Counted from the stretch's first letter, positions 1,908-60,442 are shown. The stretch is 60,442 bases of DNA from Candidatus Tayloriibacteriota bacterium (GCA_903857825.1 CAIOGI010000003.1:1-60442); one strand, 5' to 3'. The notes: generated by a model from the sequence alone, not told the origin. A program made the numbers and translations.

Positions 1908-1921
1908 CAAAATTGAGTTAG

Positions 1922-2058
1922 AAAAATTGAGACTCGGCACGGTGAGGAGGTCCTACTTTTTTGAACTTGTGAAAAAAAGAGGAGCCTCCGAGCGCGACAT
2001 TGTTTGATTTATCAAACAAGAAGTACTCCTGTGGTGCAAGTCGACGAGTCCAATTTTT
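1922..2058 (+). repeat. Type-A nested-hairpin intergenic element, copy 1 (inner module in orientation I)
   Basis: AAAATTGAGACTCG...CGAGTCCAATTTT outer stem encloses long hairpin H1 (GGAGGTCCTACTTTTTT/AAAAAAAGAGGAGCCTCC) and a 46-nt module (1992-2037) with palindrome TTGTTTGAT/ATCAAACAA. It is near-identical to the reverse complement of 53737-53871. Confidence 0.85.
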
Positions 2059-2063
2059 CTTAT

Positions 2064-2309
2064 GTTACGACTTATTTCACATGAGCTGTACTCAGCGAAT
2101 TTGTGAAATAGAAGTGCCCTTGTGGTACGACCTAAATTTCTTACGAGCAAAGCGAGTGTAGAAATTGGAAGTACTCTTTTGTGGTACGACTTATTTCACA
2201 TGAGCTGTACTCAGCGAATTTGTGAAATAGAAGTACCCTTTTGTGGTACGACTTATTTCACATGAGCTGTACTCAGCGAATTTGTGAAATAGAAGTACCC
2301 TTGTGGTAC
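2064..2309 (+). repeat. Tandem array of four type-B hairpin units (59-64 nt each)
   Basis: Units start at 2064, 2125, 2184 and 2246. Each has the form GTACGAC-[hairpin]-AGAAGTACCCTTGTG. Units 1, 3 and 4 carry the same hairpin (ACTTATTTCACA/TGTGAAATAGAAGT). Unit 2 carries a different but still self-complementary one (TAAATTTCT/AGAAATTGG). The unit ends resemble the ends of the 46-nt inner module of type-A elements. Confidence 0.85.
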
Positions 2310-2319
2310 AATATTCGTC

Positions 2320-3492
2320 ATGAAACATCATTTAAATATTAAAAAGTCTGGTGCACTCTATACATTGAGTGTACTGAGCTTTTTTCTTTCATTACATGTC
2401 GCATTACCATCATATTTCAACTCAAGCTTCCTAACCACACTAATAACTGAAAATGGTCTCAGTATCGTTTATTCAATTCAGTCTGTCTTAACAATAATAG
2501 GTTTTTTAATGATGCATAGTTTGCTGAGGAAGTTTGGAAATTTTAAGACATCTATTGCTTTGCTAGTTATACAAATCTTTGTCATTTATGGAATAATCAC
2601 CATGACAATTCCAAGTATTGTTATAATCCTATTTGTATTATCGATAGCAATAGTAAACATGATTGGTTTTACTCTAGATATATTTCTCGAAGAAAATACC
2701 AATATAGAAAATATCGGCACCGTACGAGGACATTTCTTAACAGCAGCAAATAGTGCATGGATTCTTGGACCATTAATAGGAGGAGTACTTATATTTGGTA
2801 ATAATTACAGGGGTATTTATATTGCTGCTATTTTACTACTATTCCCTATCATTTATATCGTATTTAGGAATTTCAAAAACTTTATTGATCCAAAATATGC
2901 AAAAATTTCCTTAACAAAAACAATTAGTGCAATATTCCATAATTCAGACATATCTAATCTAATTATTGTAACTTCCATATTAAACATATTCTATGCATGG
3001 ATGGTTATATATACGCCAATATATCTAAATACAATAATTGGTTTTAGTTGGGATGAGATAGGTATCATTTTTACAATAATGCTTATCCCATTTGTTCTCA
3101 TAGAAACACCACTAGGTAGAATCGCAGATAAAAAGCTAGGAGAAAAGGAAATAATGATTGCTGGATATATAATAATGGGGCTAGCTACTATTTCTCTTAG
3201 TTTTATTACTGGAAAAAATCTATTACTTTGGGCTGGTATATTATTTGTCACCCGTATCGGTGCAGCGGCTATTGAGATTATGATAGAGACGTATTTCTTC
3301 AAGAAAGTAGATAAAAGAGATACTGAGGTACTGGGCATATTTAGAGTAACAAGACCTATAGGATACATTGTTGCTCCACTGCTATCAGCAATTGGATTAT
3401 TACTAGTATCAGAGAAGTATTTATTTATTATACTTGGAGGTATTTGCCTACTAGCAATAATCCCTTTGGCAAAAATGAGGGATACTGCATAA
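2320..3492 (+). CDS. MFS-type transporter (about 12 TM membrane protein)
   Basis: 390-aa highly hydrophobic ORF with two six-helix halves and a central loop, typical of MFS proteins. No specific subfamily recognised. Confidence 0.6.
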   Translation: MKHHLNIKKSGALYTLSVLSFFLSLHVALPSYFNSSFLTTLITENGLSIVYSIQSVLTIIGFLMMHSLLRKFGNFKTSIALLVIQIFVIYGIITMTIPSIVIILFVLSIAIVNMIGFTLDIFLEENTNIENIGTVRGHFLTAANSAWILGPLIGGVLIFGNNYRGIYIAAILLLFPIIYIVFRNFKNFIDPKYAKISLTKTISAIFHNSDISNLIIVTSILNIFYAWMVIYTPIYLNTIIGFSWDEIGIIFTIMLIPFVLIETPLGRIADKKLGEKEIMIAGYIIMGLATISLSFITGKNLLLWAGILFVTRIGAAAIEIMIETYFFKKVDKRDTEVLGIFRVTRPIGYIVAPLLSAIGLLLVSEKYLFIILGGICLLAIIPLAKMRDTA

Positions 3493-3512: not shown

Positions 3513-5834
3513 TTAGCTTTGTTTGAATGGATTCTTGCCTTCTTGAAGTTGTTTAATCAATGGTTCAATCTGTGTCTTTGTCTGTGGGAACTTTTCTATT
3601 AAAGATTTTAATTCATTTGTCGCTGTCCATGTCTGATCATCCATTGCATAAGCTGCGGCTAAGAAGAATTTAACTTGTGGATCTTCTGGCTTTTTATCAA
3701 CCAATTCTTTATATATTTCAATAACCTTAGCATAATTTCCTAATTTACCATAAATACCTATCATTCTTTCATCAGTAAATATTTTAGGATCATTACCAAA
3801 TATTTCATGAGCTATTTTTTCTTTTCCTCCATTAACAAGCGCTAAGGCATATGCAATTTTTGAAAGTTCATAGTCTGGTGCGGATTCATAAGCATCCTTG
3901 GCAATAGCGATAGCATCCTCTGCTCTATTGGTATTAATATAATTCGTAGCAAGATCAAACTTTACAGCTTGTTTACCTGGAGTAAGTTTGTTTGCTTTCT
4001 CAAGTATTGGTAGAGATATATCGAACTTACCCAAGCTATTATAAAATGATCCAGCTATAACATACATACGTGCGTCATTAGGAGTCTCTGTTATTTGTCT
4101 ATCGATTTCTTTCTTGGTTAACTCATAAAAATCAGTTTTTATCTGCGCTGGAATTTGGCTACTATTCAAAACATTTCCCGCGCAAGAAATTAACTGCTCA
4201 CGAATTTCTTGATTTGCAGTTGTCTGATTTAATTTTAGTGCATTTTCAAAAGTCTTAACTGAAAGAGTTTTACCATCCGAACAAGATCTAAGAGCTGTTA
4301 TAAGTCTAGTATTTGCCTGAATCACTCTAATATTTATAAAGTAAAAACCAGAAATGAATGCAATAACTATTATAGGTACAAATATATAATCACGAACAAC
4401 CACCGCATCTTCTGACATCTTTTTCGTAGGATCTCCAAGTAATTTGCACTTCTTTCCTGATACCAATGCACTTATCATAGCCAGTAATGTGAAAAACATT
4501 ACATAACTAGTTTGATTATCAAATACGAATATATTATGTATACCATAGGCAACAAGAAGACCTATCAAAACAGATTTTTGACCAATACTCAAATCAGCTT
4601 TCCATATATAGAATAGAGCTAATACATACAGTGCAAGATATGCCAATAAACCAAGCAATCCACCAGCAACCAACCAATCCAAGAAAACGCTGTGTGCTCT
4701 GTCGAACCATTGTTCATGACCATACATCAAAGGAGTATAATCTCTATTAAAGATATAATTAAAATTCTCTTGACCTATACCTATAATAGCGGTTTTTGGA
4801 TTATCAAATATACCCTTTACTGCCATGGGCCAAATATATCCACGTGCTTGAGTTTTTGTATCAGAAAGCGAAATCGAGGAAAGACGACCTAATACCTGAT
4901 TGTTCTTTATCCAAGAAACATTTTTTGCTTTATAAAGTGAGAAACCTAATATAATTACTAGAACAATTAATCCACCGGATACATATCTAGTAAGATTTGA
5001 TTGGCCCTTTTCTACATTACCCTCTTTTTTCGAGCGTCCGAATATCGCATAGATTCCAGAAGTTATTAATATACCTGCCACCCAACCTAGAATAGAACCT
5101 CGGGTTGCTGTTTGAAAAATAATAAATGAAGAGAACACAAAGATCAAAGAGTAAATAGATATGAGTGCCATTGCCCCGTCTTTCTTTGCGACTTTCCACC
5201 CCCAAGCAATGATGGCCATGTATAAAGCAAGAAAGGCATTAAATATCATGTAAGCGCCCATGTAAGCCGAGTTTCCAAGGGATGCATCCACTCGACTAGC
5301 ACTTTGATGGACTTCTGCCAAACCAAAAAACTGAAATAAACCATAGAATGCTGTAATCGTACCTGATAACAATAGGACATTCAAAAATCTATACCAGTTC
5401 TTTCTACCTTCACTATTTTCATTCTTTGTATTACCAAAAATACTAGACATTACAATAAAGTATGCCCAGAGGTGAATTATTGTCATCCAACCTTCCATTC
5501 TCTCGAAATTTGACCATATACTACGCAAAGGGTTATATCCAAGCAAATCTGCAATTAGTGCAACTACCGTAAATACAGTCACTGTAATAGTAAGATAATT
5601 CATTCTAGGGGCTATACTTCTATCTGTACCAGCGTCAACAGTTCCCTTCTCTCTCAGTACCAATACAAGCCACAAAACCAAAACAATTTCAACAATTATT
5701 CTAAATGCAAATGCTTTTCCAGTTATAAAAGGAAAGAAATTTGAATTTGCTACGTATAAAGGAATAAATGCTATTAAGGCAAGGCCGATAATAATGGAAT
5801 ACTTGAGCACGGTGTTGATTGTTGTATTGTTCAT
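3513..5834 (-). CDS. O-antigen ligase/polymerase-like polytopic membrane protein with C-terminal TPR repeats
   Basis: The ORF track gives 3513..5909. The start was moved to the ATG at 5834 (MNNTTINT...), directly before the first TM helix. It has about 10-12 TM helices followed by a ~280-aa soluble TPR-like tail. Confidence 0.55.
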   Translation of the reverse strand: MNNTTINTVLKYSIIIGLALIAFIPLYVANSNFFPFITGKAFAFRIIVEIVLVLWLVLVLREKGTVDAGTDRSIAPRMNYLTITVTVFTVVALIADLLGYNPLRSIWSNFERMEGWMTIIHLWAYFIVMSSIFGNTKNENSEGRKNWYRFLNVLLLSGTITAFYGLFQFFGLAEVHQSASRVDASLGNSAYMGAYMIFNAFLALYMAIIAWGWKVAKKDGAMALISIYSLIFVFSSFIIFQTATRGSILGWVAGILITSGIYAIFGRSKKEGNVEKGQSNLTRYVSGGLIVLVIILGFSLYKAKNVSWIKNNQVLGRLSSISLSDTKTQARGYIWPMAVKGIFDNPKTAIIGIGQENFNYIFNRDYTPLMYGHEQWFDRAHSVFLDWLVAGGLLGLLAYLALYVLALFYIWKADLSIGQKSVLIGLLVAYGIHNIFVFDNQTSYVMFFTLLAMISALVSGKKCKLLGDPTKKMSEDAVVVRDYIFVPIIVIAFISGFYFINIRVIQANTRLITALRSCSDGKTLSVKTFENALKLNQTTANQEIREQLISCAGNVLNSSQIPAQIKTDFYELTKKEIDRQITETPNDARMYVIAGSFYNSLGKFDISLPILEKANKLTPGKQAVKFDLATNYINTNRAEDAIAIAKDAYESAPDYELSKIAYALALVNGGKEKIAHEIFGNDPKIFTDERMIGIYGKLGNYAKVIEIYKELVDKKPEDPQVKFFLAAAYAMDDQTWTATNELKSLIEKFPQTKTQIEPLIKQLQEGKNPFKQS

Positions 5835-11395: not shown

Positions 11396-11607
11396 CTTTA
11401 GTAGTATAAAACAAAACACAAACCATTACAATTTTTTGTTCCCTAGCTTGAACATATTCACAAAATTCAGTCACTTTGAAAATTCTTGTTTGAAATATAA
11501 CCCATATTTAGATGCTGTACACTATGAGATAGTAGCAACCAAAGTTTTGATTTGCCCCAAAATTGACACTTGATAAGTATACGCAAAAAAGCCATAATAA
11601 TCTATAC

Positions 11608-12510
11608 ATGTGTAACGCAATAAAAAAAATATTATATAAAATCCAAGGTAAAATTTACAGAAGTATTGCAAAACTCTTTAAATACAGATCAACGAGTTAT
11701 CCTTACATAAGTGGCGATGGTTTCAGATCAATGGCTGATCACATATATGATGAAACTTTTAAATGCAGAGCGAGTGAAGTAGAAGATAATGATGTGGTAT
11801 TTCTTAAGACAGATATGAAAGAAGAGTGGTTTACCTTAATTCATCCAAAAATTATGTCGAGATACAAATTAATTACTCATAACAGTGATGATGTTATTGG
11901 TAGAAAGGAGTCTTTATACATCGACGATAAAATCATAAGATGGTTTGCACAAAATAACATATATAAACACGAAAAAATTGTTCCCATACCGATAGGGATT
12001 GAGAATAAGCACTTGTTCGTAAATGGATGGGCGTTTATGAAAGTAGTAAAAAAAATAGTAAATATTTCAACAATTGAGAAAAAAAATAAAATACTATTTG
12101 GCTTCAACATTAAGACAAACCCAAAAGAGAGAGGTACGGCCATCAGTTCTCTAAGAAATAGTGTGATCTGTGATGAAATTATACACAGGGTAACACCGAT
12201 AGAGCATTTCAATTTATTGAATAAATATAAATTTGTTGCATCCCCAGAAGGAAATGGCCCGGATTGCATAAGAACATGGGAAGCTTTAGCTTTTAAGGTT
12301 GTTCCAATTATAAAAAATTCATCGGACTGCCAAGTTATAGAACAGAATAATTTACCAATTTTGAAAATAAAAGACTGGAGTGAAATTACAAATTTAAGCG
12401 AGGAAAAACTGGCAACTATATACAATAACTATGATTTTGCTTCAAAATCTGATATAACTATGTTTGACTATTGGAAAGAAATAATAAAAAAGAATGAAAA
12501 ACTTATATAA
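11608..12510 (+). CDS. Putative glycosyltransferase (exostosin/GT47-like C-terminal motif)
   Basis: YKFVASPEGNGPDCIRTWEALAFKVVPII resembles the exostosin-family motif. Start moved to the first ATG (11608). Confidence 0.4.
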   Translation: MCNAIKKILYKIQGKIYRSIAKLFKYRSTSYPYISGDGFRSMADHIYDETFKCRASEVEDNDVVFLKTDMKEEWFTLIHPKIMSRYKLITHNSDDVIGRKESLYIDDKIIRWFAQNNIYKHEKIVPIPIGIENKHLFVNGWAFMKVVKKIVNISTIEKKNKILFGFNIKTNPKERGTAISSLRNSVICDEIIHRVTPIEHFNLLNKYKFVASPEGNGPDCIRTWEALAFKVVPIIKNSSDCQVIEQNNLPILKIKDWSEITNLSEEKLATIYNNYDFASKSDITMFDYWKEIIKKNEKLI

Positions 12511-14179: not shown

Positions 14180-16129
14180 TTATGATTTCATCCAATTATG
14201 AAAAGAGACTGTCTTATACTTATTGGAGTATCTTTTTGTTAGTTTTTCAAGACTATTAAAATGACTTCTTGATAGCCCTGTATTATATAACGGTCGTGTC
14301 ACAACATTTTCTGGATGGTTATAAAGAACCCAGTTAGCATATGTGTCGTAATCACTCATCGATGAAGCTTCTTTCGGATCAGCCAAATCAATATACGCCT
14401 CATCCCAAGTTTTACCATTTTTGTTTTCAATTTCTCTTTTCATCTCCGCAAGATATTCAACATCGAAAAGCATCATGTGGGAAGTGAAAGAAAGTCTAGT
14501 GGGGGCATCATATCCAAAAAGCTTTTTGAATGATTTAAAGTAAGCATCATGCCATTCTGTATTGTATCTAAAAACTACTTTATCATTATTATTACCCTCA
14601 AGAAATATGTGTGGATTTATAAGTATTGTATCAGAATCAACAACTAGATATCTTCGTGTTTTAACAAACTTATCTCCAGCAAATTTGATAATCTGTTGAA
14701 AAACCCATCCACTCCTATCTTTTCCATTTACTTCGTATTTAATGTGATCCTTATCATACCCAAGAACAGATTTTTCATCTATAAAATGATATCCTTTTTG
14801 ATTACAAAAGTGAATCAGATCTTCTTCAGTCTTAGATACGATGTAAACATCACCAAGGTTATTACATACATTCTTTTCTAGGCTTTGAAGCATAACTTTC
14901 ATAATCGCACGATCCCAATAAACGGTCTTAATAAAAATATCAATTTTTTCTTTACTATTTTTTACAAGAGAACAATCTTCAGCAAAGTCAATCCTTATGA
15001 TTTGCTTCGCACACAGTAATATATAATTCATTGTGATAGAAATTTGATGCTTAATACCTAATCGTGTTTTTATATCGTAAATAAATATATAGTACGGCTT
15101 AAGAATCTTCTTTACTTTTTTTATGTATGGAGTATAAAATTTAAGCTTTAATGCAGGTGATTCAATTTGTTTTTTGATCGATTCTATTTCATATGCACTT
15201 AATTTATCCGACAATCGTCTTTTCTCACAAGATACTAATTGAGTATTGTAATCACCTACAAATAACGGATCGAAACATCTTGAAACTAAATTAAATAGAT
15301 CCCCTTCATTGTTTAGATTAAAAGATAGAATAAATTTCTTAACTTCAGGATCAAATAAGTATAAAAATTCAGTAAGAATACGAAACCAATTTCTATTTGA
15401 TCTTCCAGATCTAGCTTCTCGAGTATAATATGATGCGTAAAATCCTCTAGGATGCAAACGGTGATAATACTCTGCATCTGGACAGGTATATGCGACCAAT
15501 CCACTAGCCAGGAATCTCCATGCAAATGCTTGAGTGTCGAAACCATGATTTTCTGGATAACCGCCTGACAGAGTAAACGCTTCTTTTGTGTGCATAAAAA
15601 CAGAATATAATGGACACAATACATTATTTATTTGCAAAAGACTCTCAAATGGAATCCTTTCTCCAGAATATGAAAATGTATCAATCCTATCAATATATTT
15701 TTTATCGATACCACGAAACTTGCCTTTAAACTTTATAGATCTGTGCAAACCTACACCATCACAAATTAATCCTCTTTTCTTTTTATCCTCCATAAATAGA
15801 TACATCCTTGATAAGGTGCCATCTGGTAAAATGTCATCACTATCAAGACAAAATATGACATCACCAGATGATTTTGATATAGCAGTATTACGAGTTGCTC
15901 CCCCTCCCTTATTTTGAGTGTGAAAAAATATTTTAATCTCCTTATGCTCAGATGCTATCTTTCTTAAAAACTCTGGCGTTGTGTCTTTTGAACCATCGTC
16001 AACCATTATAATTTCAAAAGTAATCATATTTTCCTTAAGATTTTGTCTAAAACAAGAAGAAACAGCCTCCGAAACAGTACGGGCAGAATTAAACGTCGGA
16101 ATTATTATTGAGAGTTTGGGTTTAGACAT
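14180..16129 (-). CDS. Two-domain glycosyltransferase (N-terminal GT2 plus C-terminal uncharacterised transferase-like domain)
   Basis: N-terminus LSIIIPTFNSARTV...VDDGSKDTT...CLDSDD is classic GT2. The C-terminal ~300 aa contains LVVDSDT (DxD-like). Confidence 0.7.
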   Translation of the reverse strand: MSKPKLSIIIPTFNSARTVSEAVSSCFRQNLKENMITFEIIMVDDGSKDTTPEFLRKIASEHKEIKIFFHTQNKGGGATRNTAISKSSGDVIFCLDSDDILPDGTLSRMYLFMEDKKKRGLICDGVGLHRSIKFKGKFRGIDKKYIDRIDTFSYSGERIPFESLLQINNVLCPLYSVFMHTKEAFTLSGGYPENHGFDTQAFAWRFLASGLVAYTCPDAEYYHRLHPRGFYASYYTREARSGRSNRNWFRILTEFLYLFDPEVKKFILSFNLNNEGDLFNLVSRCFDPLFVGDYNTQLVSCEKRRLSDKLSAYEIESIKKQIESPALKLKFYTPYIKKVKKILKPYYIFIYDIKTRLGIKHQISITMNYILLCAKQIIRIDFAEDCSLVKNSKEKIDIFIKTVYWDRAIMKVMLQSLEKNVCNNLGDVYIVSKTEEDLIHFCNQKGYHFIDEKSVLGYDKDHIKYEVNGKDRSGWVFQQIIKFAGDKFVKTRRYLVVDSDTILINPHIFLEGNNNDKVVFRYNTEWHDAYFKSFKKLFGYDAPTRLSFTSHMMLFDVEYLAEMKREIENKNGKTWDEAYIDLADPKEASSMSDYDTYANWVLYNHPENVVTRPLYNTGLSRSHFNSLEKLTKRYSNKYKTVSFHNWMKS

Positions 16130-17955: not shown

Positions 17956-17991
17956 AAAATTGGACTCCCTCACCGCGTCGAGTCCAATTTT
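17956..17991 (-). repeat. Minimal type-A element (outer stem plus loop only), copy 5
   Basis: Read on the minus strand it is TAG-T-AAAATTGGACTC-GACGCGGTGAGG-GAGTCCAATTTT. This gives a perfect 12-bp stem. The loop equals the 5' flank of the full-length copies, and the element starts 1 nt after the stop of 17993..19909. Confidence 0.8.
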
Positions 17992-19909: not shown

Positions 19910-19937
19910 AAATATAGATCTTTATAAGAATAATATT

Positions 19938-19999
19938 ACCACAAGGGCACTTCTATTTCACTATTCGCTGTGTACAGCTCAGGTGAAATAAGTCGTACC
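19938..19999 (-). repeat. Solitary type-B hairpin unit
   Basis: The minus-strand reading GGTACGACTTATTTCACCTGAGCTGTACACAGCGAATAGTGAAATAGAAGTGCCCTTGTGGT differs at a handful of positions from unit 1 of the 2064-2309 array. It lies 28 nt upstream of the start of 17993..19909, in the same sense. Confidence 0.8.
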
Positions 20000-26733: not shown

Positions 26734-26869
26734 AAAATTGAGACTCGACGCGGTGAGGAGGTCCTACTTTTTTTGAACTTGTGAAAAAAAGAGGAGCCTC
26801 CGAGCACCACAGGGGTACTAGTAGTTTGCTAAAGCAAACTATGTCGCGCAAGCAAGCGAGTCCAATTTT
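26734..26869 (+). repeat. Type-A nested-hairpin element, copy 2 (inner module in orientation II)
   Basis: The 5' 70 nt are the same as copy 1. The 46-nt module (26804-26849) is the reverse complement of the copy-1 module in its ends, with a different compensated hairpin (TAGTTTGCT/AGCAAACTA). The element starts 1 nt after the mraY TAG. Confidence 0.85.
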
Positions 26870-35307: not shown

Positions 35308-35310
35308 TTG

Positions 35311-35383
35311 TGCGCCCGGAGGGACTCGAACCCACGGCCAATCGAGTATAAGTCGACCGCTCTACCAACTGAGCTACGGGCGC
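35311..35383 (-). tRNA. tRNA-Ile, anticodon UAU
   Basis: 73-nt cloverleaf. Acceptor GCGCCCG/CGGGCGC, D arm GCTC-AGTTGGTA-GAGC, anticodon arm GTCGA-CTTATAC-TCGAT, variable loop TGGCC, T arm GTGGG-TTCGAGT-CCCTC (one U-U mismatch), discriminator A. No encoded CCA. The body resembles bacterial tRNA-Ile2. Confidence 0.8.
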
Positions 35384-38517: not shown

Positions 38518-38637
38518 AGAAAGAGGGCTGTGATATTGTTTCTCGAAAACGAAAAATTTCTTGCTAGAAATTTTCCTCGGTCCTCAGGCCGTCGCCTTGC
38601 GGATGTTTCTCAAAAGCAATATCACAGCCTTCTTTCT
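38518..38637 (+). repeat. 120-nt nested hairpin between smpB and ssrA
   Basis: A 21-bp outer stem (38518-38538 with 38617-38637) includes one G-U that would be a C-A mismatch on the other strand. It encloses a perfect 10-bp hairpin GAAAATTTCT-tgct-AGAAATTTTC and a GC-rich segment. Confidence 0.7.
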
Positions 38638-38646
38638 TAAACACAT

Positions 38647-39060
38647 GGGGATGAAAGGCCTCGACAGTTGAGGTACTTCATATTGTGCATTGTAGAGCTC
38701 CATTGTCTCTTAAAACCGATGGAAACTCGTAACTGCTAATTCAGCAATTACAAAGGTAAAGGCTGCTGTGTCTCCATATTTTGGATCACACAACTTTACT
38801 TTCGCTCTAGCTACGGCTTAAGCGACGTCTCACATCATGCGTTCTGAATGGTGTTGAGGTGATATAAACATGAACTAGAATTATATTCGCTTCCCTGCTT
38901 ATAATTCGAAACCTTGGGAATCGCCTACATATATTTTGTTTACTTTATAGTATGTAAGTTAAAAGAGTAGGTTGAAAGATCTGCTCGCTAAAGTTTTCTA
39001 TACAATGTAGAAGCAATATAAGATTTCATCTGCACGGCGGTTCGATTCCGCCCATCTCCA
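38647..39060 (+). ncRNA. ssrA: tmRNA
   Basis: The 5' GGGGAUG pairs with the 3' CAUCUCC, including G3-U. T-arm GGUUCGAUUCCGCC. Tag reading frame GCU AAU ... GCU CUA GCU ACG GCU UAA (38735-38821). Located after smpB. Confidence 0.85.
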
Positions 39061-39189
39061 CAATATTGAGACATGTAATATTCCTTGCCTAATATTCTAA
39101 CAAGTTGTAAGCTAAATGTAGCTAGAAAACTAATCCTGTACTAAATTCGCCTGTTGCGAATCTGGTATTGGAGAATAATCGAAAAATCT

Positions 39190-53736: not shown

Positions 53737-53871
53737 AAAATTGGATTCGTCGACTTGCACCACAGGGGTACTTCTTGTTTGATAAATCAAACAATGTCGC
53801 GCTCGGAGGCTCCTCTTTTTTTCACAAGTTCAAAAAAGTAGGACCTCCTCACCGTGCCGAATCTCAATTTT
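53737..53871 (-). repeat. Type-A nested-hairpin element, copy 3 (orientation I)
   Basis: Reverse complement of copy 1 with a few substitutions. These include a compensated pair in the outer stem (GATTCG/CGAATC versus GACTCG/CGAGTC). Confidence 0.85.
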
Positions 53872-53892
53872 GTTATACAGATGTACTTTGTC

Positions 53893-54029
53893 GGCTATAA
53901 GAGTATCAAGCCTAGTAAAATTACTAGGTGGGTGATCTCAATGCTAATACCAAGGTACAGCATAATTTGAAGTGCGAAACTTCGTCGATCTCCCAGTTAA
54001 AAAGTTATAGATTTAATACTCTTATAACC
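53893..54029 (-). ncRNA. Candidate structured small RNA (four or more helices), family unknown
   Basis: A 14-bp closing stem (54029-54016 with 53906-53893) encloses GGGAGATC/GATCACCC, GAAGT/ACTTC, TGCT/AGCA and CCTAGTA/TACTAGG helices. G-U pairs exist only on the minus strand. A TATAAT box (54041-54036) ends 6 nt before the first stem base. A type-A element follows 22 nt downstream. Confidence 0.45.
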
Positions 54030-54035
54030 TATTCA

Positions 54036-59547: not shown

Positions 59548-59687
59548 AAAATTGAGGCTCGCCTGCTTGCGCGACATAGTTTGCTTTAGCAAACTACTAG
59601 TACCCTTGTGGTGCTCGGGAGCACTTTATTTTTATACGCATGCTAGTAAAAATAAAGTCCCCCCTCACCGCGTCGAGTCTCAATTTT
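59548..59687 (-). repeat. Type-A nested-hairpin element, copy 4 (orientation II, alternative H1 hairpin)
   Basis: The minus strand reads TAAAATTGAGACTCGACGCGGTGAGG..., and its first TAA is the adk stop codon. H1 is replaced by GGGGGGACTTTATTTTTA/TAAAAATAAAGTGCTCCC. The H2 module is identical to copy 2. Confidence 0.85.
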
Positions 59688-60328: not shown

Positions 60329-60442
60329 TTACGATTTGGTAAATAGTGATGTTGGCGATTTGAAATTAAGACGTTTTCGTTCACGAGAATTGAGACGACG
60401 AACAACATGTTGTAATTCTTTTTCAGTGATGAGGTTAAAATC
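60329..60442 (-). mobile_element. 3' end of an IS30-family transposase gene (truncated by the window edge)
   Basis: The minus-strand translation DFNLITEKELQHVVRRLNSRERKRLNFKSPTSLFTKS* matches the IS30 C-terminal signature LNxRPRKxLxxxTP..F. It is not in the ORF track because it is shorter than 60 aa. Confidence 0.55.

Follow-up and report, generated by a model that had tools for sequence, protein, structure and literature searches.

Analysing a 60,442-nt stretch of DNA (hereafter the window) together with contigs from its relatives, we found that the short palindromic elements lying behind several of its genes form a previously undescribed repeat family, type A, which is confined to a clade of Patescibacteria. 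Type A is probably a palindromic DNA repeat of the MITE, REP or ERIC type, whose copies would have spread and been homogenised as DNA, selection leaving them only in the bases that follow stop codons. The pairing of its hairpin is clearly under constraint, its copies are shown to have been gained, lost, truncated and homogenised at the DNA level, and the long copies of the window are composites, in which type B, an unrelated 42-nt repeat, has been inserted into the type A core.

Five type A loci were found in the 60 kb of the window. Motif searches allowing mismatches (for the 5' end, the CTCG-N4-GGTGAGG core and a 9-nt half-site) recovered all five copies that an earlier note on this DNA had reported, and gave no further convincing copy in the window; CTCGNNNNGGTGAGG with up to two mismatches matched nine times against 3.2 expected, the five true matches having zero or one mismatch. 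The copies measure 36–140 nt and are pairwise 62–98% identical, c1 and c3 sharing 132 of 135 positions (98%) despite their unrelated loci and flanks. Pfam domains of the neighbouring genes (RNase J, MFS transporter, GT4/MraY-type, ATE-like, NDK, Map, ADK, VirD4/TrwB-like and GT2) agree with the gene context given for these copies in that note. The type A copies and the type B units of the window are distributed as follows.

1909..1917, + strand: solo 9-nt half-site AAAATTGAG, 1 nt past the rnj stop codon TAG and 14 nt before c1, as first reported.
1923..2057, + strand: type A copy c1, alpha variant (GCAC ... AAGTCGA) with a forward type B module, 61.3 bits with the covariance model; separated from the rnj stop codon by 15 nt.
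1996..2037, + strand: type B module in c1, GAC-hairpin-GAAGTACTCCTGTGGTGC, directly 3' of GCGC.
2069..2309, + strand: type B tandem of four head-to-tail units, 59–62 nt each, starting 11 nt past c1 with TCTTATGTTAC in between.
17956..17991, - strand: minimal type A copy c5, 25.2 bits, which keeps the outer stem and the loop GACGCGGTGAGG and has lost H1 and the 3' internal part; 1 nt past the stop codon of the VirD4-like gene, with convergent genes on either side.
19936..19994, - strand: solo type B unit upstream of the VirD4-like gene, with GGTAC ahead of the unit.
26734..26869, + strand: type A copy c2, beta variant (ACGC ... AAGCAAG), 66.8 bits; starts 1 nt past the mraY stop codon TAG, ends 15 nt short of the next gene and is flanked by TTA...TTA.
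26804..26845, - strand: type B module in c2, inverted relative to type A, on the other side of the same GCGC.
53737..53871, - strand: type A copy c3, alpha variant with a forward type B inside; flanked by TAA...TAA, 22 nt past a conserved 6S-like RNA candidate.
53757..53798, - strand: type B module in c3, forward relative to type A.
59548..59687, - strand: type A copy c4, beta variant whose H1 is different, 44.2 bits; outer stem of 14 nt with one mismatch; contributes AA to the adk stop codon TAA and stops 14 nt short of map.
59573..59614, + strand: type B module in c4, inverted relative to type A.

Several details of the earlier description are borne out by these copies. Their anatomy reads, as described, AAAATTG(A)GAYTCG, GCAC or ACGC, GGTGAGG, H1, CYCCGAGC, H2, AAG.. 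and CGARYC(Y)CAATTTT, and their ends pair over 7 + 6 bp around one bulged A, or over 12 bp in the minimal copy. The arrangement TAG-T-AAAATTG is present both after mraY and after the VirD4-like gene, the stop codon TAA of adk combines the flanking T with the AA of the element, and c3 does follow a small RNA candidate, the conserved 6S-like region. The extent of the outer stem had nevertheless been underestimated, two further flanking base pairs belonging to it (14 bp in c5 when the flanks are counted), and H2, taken at the time for an integral 46-nt module, is instead a separate 42-nt element, inverted in c1/c3 relative to c2/c4.

This second repeat, type B, is represented by nine units in the window, including the four-unit tandem and the solo copy, and GCGC, GTAC or TTAC stands directly 5' of its GAC in 9/9 of them. 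Removing the 42-nt piece (GAC-hairpin-GAAGTACYCCTGTGGTGC) from each long copy restores exactly the core CCGAGCGCAAG, as found in the relative L031. Within type A, the palindromic GCGC has the unit on its 3' side, read on the top strand in c1/c3 (alpha) and on the bottom strand in c2/c4 (beta), which is why "H2" appears inverted between the two pairs of copies; the four-unit tandem beside c1 places it in an independent repeat family. Insertion 3' of a fixed tetranucleotide without duplication would resemble the behaviour of IS200/IS605-derived elements. In the relative L033, which has no type A in 20 kb, a B-like sequence (3707–3783) is found just upstream of its own VirD4-like gene. The copy number of the array at 2069–2309 appears variable from one assembly to another, with a spacing between rnj and the MFS gene of 350 nt in one sample versus 412 nt here, a difference of one 62-nt type B unit. 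TIGR arrays combine tandem units with different dual spacers and an adjacent Tas (Nop-domain) gene (PMC12045711); we rejected a TIGR-Tas stem-loop array for the type B tandem, three of its four units being near-identical and its neighbours being rnj and an MFS gene.

Outside the window, exact-pattern scans of 185,579 species genomes and of JGI/ENA metagenomes, collections that do not include the window's own species, yielded 20 stretches. Four of these, in Rhizobium, Raoultibacter and two metagenome contigs, were chance matches without the 3' end, and all the remaining ones belonged to Patescibacteria, from groundwater (Hainich MAG H51-bin097_1) and from the metagenome Ga0194060. More copies were reached through Map and ATE-like homologues on contigs of close relatives (L028 18363–18460, L028 9957–9989 and L031). 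In all, 13 more independent copies came from related Patescibacteria; a covariance model (R1) run over 245 kb of window and relatives added none, its weak matches in L025 and L028 being ordinary terminators on inspection.

The core measures about 90–96 nt; in the relatives, the whole element is 89–98 nt long and runs AAAATTGAGACTCG, ACGC/GCAC, GGTGAGG, H1, CCGAACGC, AAG followed by CAAG/TCGA, and CGAGTCCAATTTT. Every full copy carries a 14-nt inverted terminal repeat with one bulged A, AAAATTG(A)GACTCG / CGAGTCCAATTTT, and the extreme ends are 2 bp that vary yet remain complementary (R-N ... N'-Y). The asymmetric internal loops (ACGC/GCAC, GGTGAGG ... CCGAACGC-AAG-CAAG/TCGA) are conserved as well, and an alignment of 17 sequences shows ends and loop sequences to be almost invariant across genomes. 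The distal hairpin H1 differs between genomes, is near-identical inside one genome and always pairs. Partial copies also occur: the deletion derivative c5, the half-site at 1909–1917, and a solo inverted 3' end at L013 1091–1103 (AAAATTGGACTCG), which lies 18 nt upstream of a full element and resembles that half-site. They point to a turbulent history at the DNA level. In the H51 MAG, an RNase P RNA-like sequence (GAGGAAAGTCCGAGC, L005 about 3400–3460) was recognised by eye behind a type A copy, which appears to sit between a protein gene and rnpB.

The long window copies fold far better than shuffled sequences (z about -6 to -7), and their reverse complements fold equally well. RNAalifold, applied to 17 cores and their flanks as aligned by plain MAFFT, gave a single rod-like imperfect hairpin, composed of a 9-bp outer stem (two flank pairs counted), the bulged A, a 6-bp helix, an internal loop, two short helices and H1. 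That the stems are kept by compensatory change is supported by this alignment: paired cells reach 99.0% versus 90.2% in shuffles, 12 of 29 pairs are changed on both sides versus 6.0, and the covariation score of 0.292 compares with 0.114 in shuffles, none of the 500 reaching it, and with at most 0.108 in a control with slid partners. Complementarity at the two flank positions holds in 17/17 and 16/17 independent loci; at the next positions it drops to 5–6/17, which is background. Individual comparisons go the same way, as two of the three differences between c1 and c3 form one compensatory pair, and the element ends at the mraY junction differ in a compensatory manner between L031 (AAAATGAGGCTTG/CAAGCCCATTTT) and the window (AAAATTGAGACTCG/CGAGTCCAATTTT). 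The alpha/beta difference holds one compensatory pair, G-C versus A-U in columns 25/91; a pairing of the 5' with the 3' tetranucleotides of the two variants could be accounted for only in part. Double-changed cells number 53 and G·U cells 2, and this near-absence of G·U, together with the use of both orientations, makes the hairpin constraint lean to the DNA level, as pairing in DNA or copying from arm to arm predicts few G·U and equal folding of both strands better than RNA pairing does. An invariant U·G in a short helix (columns 28–30/85–87), for which the other strand would give a C·A mismatch, belongs to 3 bp that show no variation at all, and it may not truly pair.

The earlier note had also held that the elements always lie sense to the upstream gene and always start at a stop codon. 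The first generalisation does not hold as a rule outside the window: the totals are 13 sense to 5 antisense, the 5:0 of the window (two-sided p about 0.06) being set against 8:5 elsewhere, and the five antisense copies, all in relatives, were verified by Pfam on the flanking gene calls.

L009: antisense type A between a Wzy/TPR gene and murB.
L020: antisense type A between rplJ and rplL.
L014 and the orthologous L012: antisense type A between infB and rbfA.
L018: antisense type A between yebC and the next gene.
L007: antisense type A, 149 nt past the H+-PPase gene.

Closeness to the stop codon is real, but either end of the element may face the upstream gene. Gaps to the stop codon are at most 17 nt for most copies (they include -8, -2, 1, 1, 2, 2, 4, 4, 6, 7, 12, 12, 15 and 17 nt), several copies sit inside conserved operons, and the downstream start codon, where known, is at least 10 nt away. 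Spacers at empty sites are tiny, with adk and map 1 nt apart or overlapping, 20 nt between mraY and ate, and 27 nt between GT2 and VirD4; the post-stop position is probably due to such spacers and to the need to leave the ribosome-binding site of the next gene in place. Read in sense, the 5' end offers a stop codon in either of two frames (T-AA and AAT-TGA), so that the element can replace a stop codon, as for adk in the window and in L028, and this may create a mild sense bias where an insert touches the stop.

Filled and empty orthologous sites could be compared at four junctions (adk-map, mraY-ate, downstream of ndk, and smpB-ssrA). At adk-map, the window carries the element, L023/L024 (91% Map identity) are empty with the genes 1 nt apart (TTTAAAATGATA), L025 (86%) is empty with overlapping genes, and L028 (82%) has a degenerate minimal hairpin of 33 nt. 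Between mraY and ate, the window has a beta copy with type B, L031 (90%) an alpha copy without it, and L033 (83%) an empty site; L033 also lacks a hairpin at the GT2/VirD4 junction. Downstream of ndk, L028 is empty and the window filled. In the smpB-ssrA spacer, L017 and L010 carry type A and the window carries an unrelated, single-copy palindrome of 120 nt with 33-nt arms (38518–38637), which fills the smpB-tmRNA spacer; different palindromes thus occupy the same post-stop spacer. The relative L011 was rejected as an orthologue of the c5 site, its flanking proteins being unrelated.

The boundaries of these insertions are less regular. TTA or TAA direct repeats, lying outside the terminal G/C(N), occur at 5 of 17 independent loci (c1, c2, c3, L007 and L012/L014) and any 3-nt direct repeat at 6 of 17 versus 1.8 expected (p about 0.002–0.004 by permutation); the TTA/TAA repeats are absent at 12 of 17. 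The comparison is unclean at two of the four junctions, adk-map and ndk, where filled alleles carry 10–20 extra bases, unlike a clean insertion.

The elements resemble no family that we could recognise, in line with the initial impression. Rfam returned no match to them at gathering thresholds and only noise up to E = 10 (at most 19.8 bits), BLAST against phage and plasmid collections and a scan of viral contigs found no match to the element, and a literature search on such repeats in CPR, Patescibacteria or Parcubacteria returned no relevant description. As in MITEs, terminal inverted repeats bound a short, non-coding, multi-copy sequence with filled and empty orthologous sites. Departing from REP/RAYT systems, where a G+C-rich hairpin of 20–40 nt with a conserved 5' tetranucleotide (GTAG type) goes with a RAYT gene, type A is a 90–140-nt A+T-rich rod without a conserved 5' tetranucleotide in its flanks, and type B, with GCGC, GTAC or TTAC on its 5' side, comes nearer to them. 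Integron attC sites are a poor description of elements that end in AAAATTG / CAATTTT and neighbour housekeeping genes. Hammerhead and other small ribozymes were discarded, the junctions being a misfit to the hammerhead core by eye and Rfam giving nothing, as was a K-turn or box C/D-like motif formed by GGTGAGG/CCGAAC, whose loop sizes, also judged by eye, misfit a standard K-turn.

Among the roles proposed at the outset, that of terminator now looks weak. A terminator scan did not flag the elements, their loop measures at least 12 nt, and their 4-nt T run pairs with the A run, contrary to the G+C-rich stem, 3–8-nt loop and unpaired U tract of an intrinsic terminator. The relatives use ordinary G+C-rich intrinsic or bidirectional terminators (L011 about 350–385, L025 18430–18469 and L028 19294–19327), the one in L011 lying about 50 nt downstream of a type A element, and type A copies occur inside operons. 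The alternative of a very specific insertion preference fits better, provided that selection in very short spacers is added.

Under the reading that we prefer, a palindromic DNA repeat of MITE, REP or ERIC type, type A would be mobilised in trans, possibly with a 3-bp TWA target duplication, and gene conversion between copies would homogenise them. As spacers measure about 0–30 nt, copies would survive only between a stop codon and the next ribosome-binding site, and this surviving position would produce the pattern of starting at a stop codon for either end of the element. Type B would have invaded type A secondarily in the window genome. Several observations go against this reading. TTA/TAA repeats are lacking at 12 of 17 loci, and the extra bases of the filled adk-map and ndk alleles do not fit a clean insertion. 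The last 2 bp of the element differ between copies of the same genome, an uncommon trait for ends recognised by a transposase, and all five window copies are sense. The internal loops also show more conservation across genomes than would be required of a purely selfish element. In the 245 kb and among the ORFs tested (20 in the window), neither an autonomous partner nor a transposase with matching ends was detected. Two candidates were rejected, the IS30-like element at the window end, whose right end is unlike those of type A, and a 315-aa ORF at 11563–12510 with AAAATTGACACTTG at its start, which is not a transposase.

A cis-acting RNA element of the upstream transcript appears unlikely. It would act as a 3' exonuclease barrier, a processing site (for a double-strand-specific or RNase J/Y type activity) or a weak terminator, a roughly 45-bp imperfect hairpin after the stop codon setting the relative stability of cistrons, with mobility secondary or absent. 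The 5:0 sense orientation in the window, the location of most copies within 17 nt of a stop codon, the strong covariation with internal loops conserved across genomes, and the invariant U·G that would be C·A on the other strand speak for it, and ERIC and Correia elements work in this way (PMC3184786). Against it stand the five verified antisense copies inside operons, the equal folding of both strands, the 2 G·U cells against 53 double changes, the patchy presence among close relatives at the same junctions, and the canonical terminator behind the element in L011 with the terminator scan silent on the elements themselves. The RNA and selfish-repeat readings are not exclusive, because ERIC and Correia elements do both, and the loop conservation and 5:0 sense orientation of the window are compatible with a co-opted RNA role.

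Even less probable is a structure-specific single-stranded-DNA recombination site, moved or inverted by a tyrosine recombinase or a Y1 enzyme of the IS200/IS605/RAYT type that would recognise the folded hairpin, its bulged A and its asymmetric loops, as for attC or REP. The preservation of pairing rather than sequence in H1, the invariance of extrahelical bases and loops, a covariation restricted to Watson-Crick pairs as pairing in DNA predicts, the lack of direct repeats around most copies, and the IS200/IS605-like behaviour of type B, always 3' of a specific tetranucleotide on either strand, are consistent with such a site; however, no recombinase or Y1 transposase gene was detected among the ORFs tested, neither attC core sites (RYYYAAC/GTTRRRY) nor the REP GTAG motif can be read in the sequence, the surroundings are housekeeping operons and not cassette arrays, and five loci carry TTA/TAA direct repeats. 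It is improbable, though slightly easier to entertain than either of these two readings, that the loops GGTGAGG / CCGAACGCAAG and the rod hairpin are the recognition site of a dedicated protein of these ultra-small bacteria and make type A a selected, functional post-stop part of operons rather than a mere selfish insert; such a protein could belong to a DNA recombination, RNA-processing or 3'-UTR system, whose machinery could have made or selected the covarying two-base flanks. Similarity by chance or through an assembly artefact is refuted by five copies of 36–140 nt being 62–98% identical, by the same loci recurring in independent assemblies and by homologues in other genomes. Repeat copies spread at the DNA level and filtered by selection remain our preferred explanation of type A.

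Several other features of the window deserve mention. On the minus strand at 53887–54035, a strongly conserved structured non-coding region closed by 22-nt arms lies between ndk and a DUF2238 gene and is near-identical in L028 (about 14680–14840). Its best Rfam match is 6S RNA (18.4 bits, E 0.057, for a gathering score of 46.4), and the region may encode a divergent form of 6S RNA. An IS30-like transposase, cut by the window end, is represented by its C-terminus at 60332–60442 (minus strand), and a variant contig has a 315-aa HTH_38+rve protein upstream of adk. Breaks at this IS30-like end and at a point 14 nt ahead of rnj recur in several independent assemblies, which makes it probable that the window is an entire contig with repeats at its limits; the species is carried by more than 50 metagenome samples, but since assemblies break at the same places, extending the window from its end genes gave no new sequence. 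A tRNA-Ile with the anticodon TAT is present at 35310–35383 (minus strand), which is unusual in bacteria, where AUA is normally read by a lysidine-modified CAT anticodon, and a tmRNA with a long tag peptide of 28 residues at 38647–39061 (plus strand).

The genomes of Patescibacteria, at about 0.7 Mb, contain hardly any spacer DNA, and the group is usually regarded as repeat-poor. At least two interacting families of palindromic repeats nevertheless fill the post-stop bases of core genes here (mraY, adk-map, rplJ-rplL and infB-rbfA). These families offer natural markers of strain divergence and explain contig breaks and intergenic regions of variable length in these metagenome assemblies. With 12 covarying pairs and both orientations in use, type A is a clean test case of whether DNA mobility or mRNA fate preserves such hairpins, and its cognate enzyme, if it exists, would provide a structure-specific tool for nucleic acids, drawn from an unexplored lineage.

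We finally compared types A and B with known repeat systems. In ERIC elements, size variants come from internal insertions at fixed sites, and mycobacterial MIRUs abut or overlap stop and start codons. ERIC/IRU sequences are imperfect palindromes of transcribed intergenic regions, found in either orientation, whose RNA hairpin can alter the stability of the upstream mRNA (PMC3184786). The ERIC/IRU of Enterobacteriaceae (127 bp) share with type A an imperfect palindrome over the whole length of about 100–130 nt, a frequent location at gene 3' ends, a patchy presence between relatives, either orientation, and size variants via internal inserts. They have no sequence similarity to type A and occur in another host phylum, their flanks are TA rather than 2 variable complementary bp with sometimes TTA/TAA, and, unlike in ERIC, the internal insert of type A is a member of a second repeat family.

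The Correia elements of Neisseria (CREE), which occupy sites in one relative that are empty in another and which are transcribed along with their neighbours into hairpins (PMC3184786), and bacterial MITEs have, like type A, terminal inverted repeats and a non-coding body of about 100–160 nt. Correia elements, however, regularly duplicate TA and carry IHF and promoter features, whereas duplication was seen at only 5/17 type A loci, and the maintained hairpin spans the whole of type A versus just the ends in Correia elements and MITEs. SPRITE elements and intrinsic terminators resemble type A as hairpins that lie at gene 3' ends between A and T tracts, and the placement of c5 between convergent genes is terminator-like; type A differs by its A+T-rich stem, its loop of 12 nt in c5 and of about 65–110 structured nt in full copies, its paired 4-nt T run and its copies inside operons. 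REP/RAYT, the IS200/IS605-derived PATEs and attC sites share with type A a hairpin conserved in structure over sequence with asymmetric or extrahelical bases, and share with type B the insertion 3' of a fixed tetranucleotide without duplication, but type A showed no GTAG motif, attC cores, RAYT or integrase gene and is 3–4 times longer than REP.

MIRUs are found in operon spacers within polycistronic transcription units, as tandem units of variable copy number (PMC3184786). Their intergenic position in operons, abutting or overlapping stop and start codons, recalls types A and B; yet they are direct tandem minisatellites with small ORFs, reported in gene orientation, and not hairpins, whereas type A is a palindrome found in both orientations. 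Pneumococcal BOX elements and the BIMEs of E. coli are, like types A and B, mosaics of short units with variable unit number and tandem arrays, a pattern matched by the fourfold type B array next to c1 and by type B inside type A; where BOX keeps a fixed A-B(n)-C order, type B is nested in type A at a specific GCGC, in either orientation.
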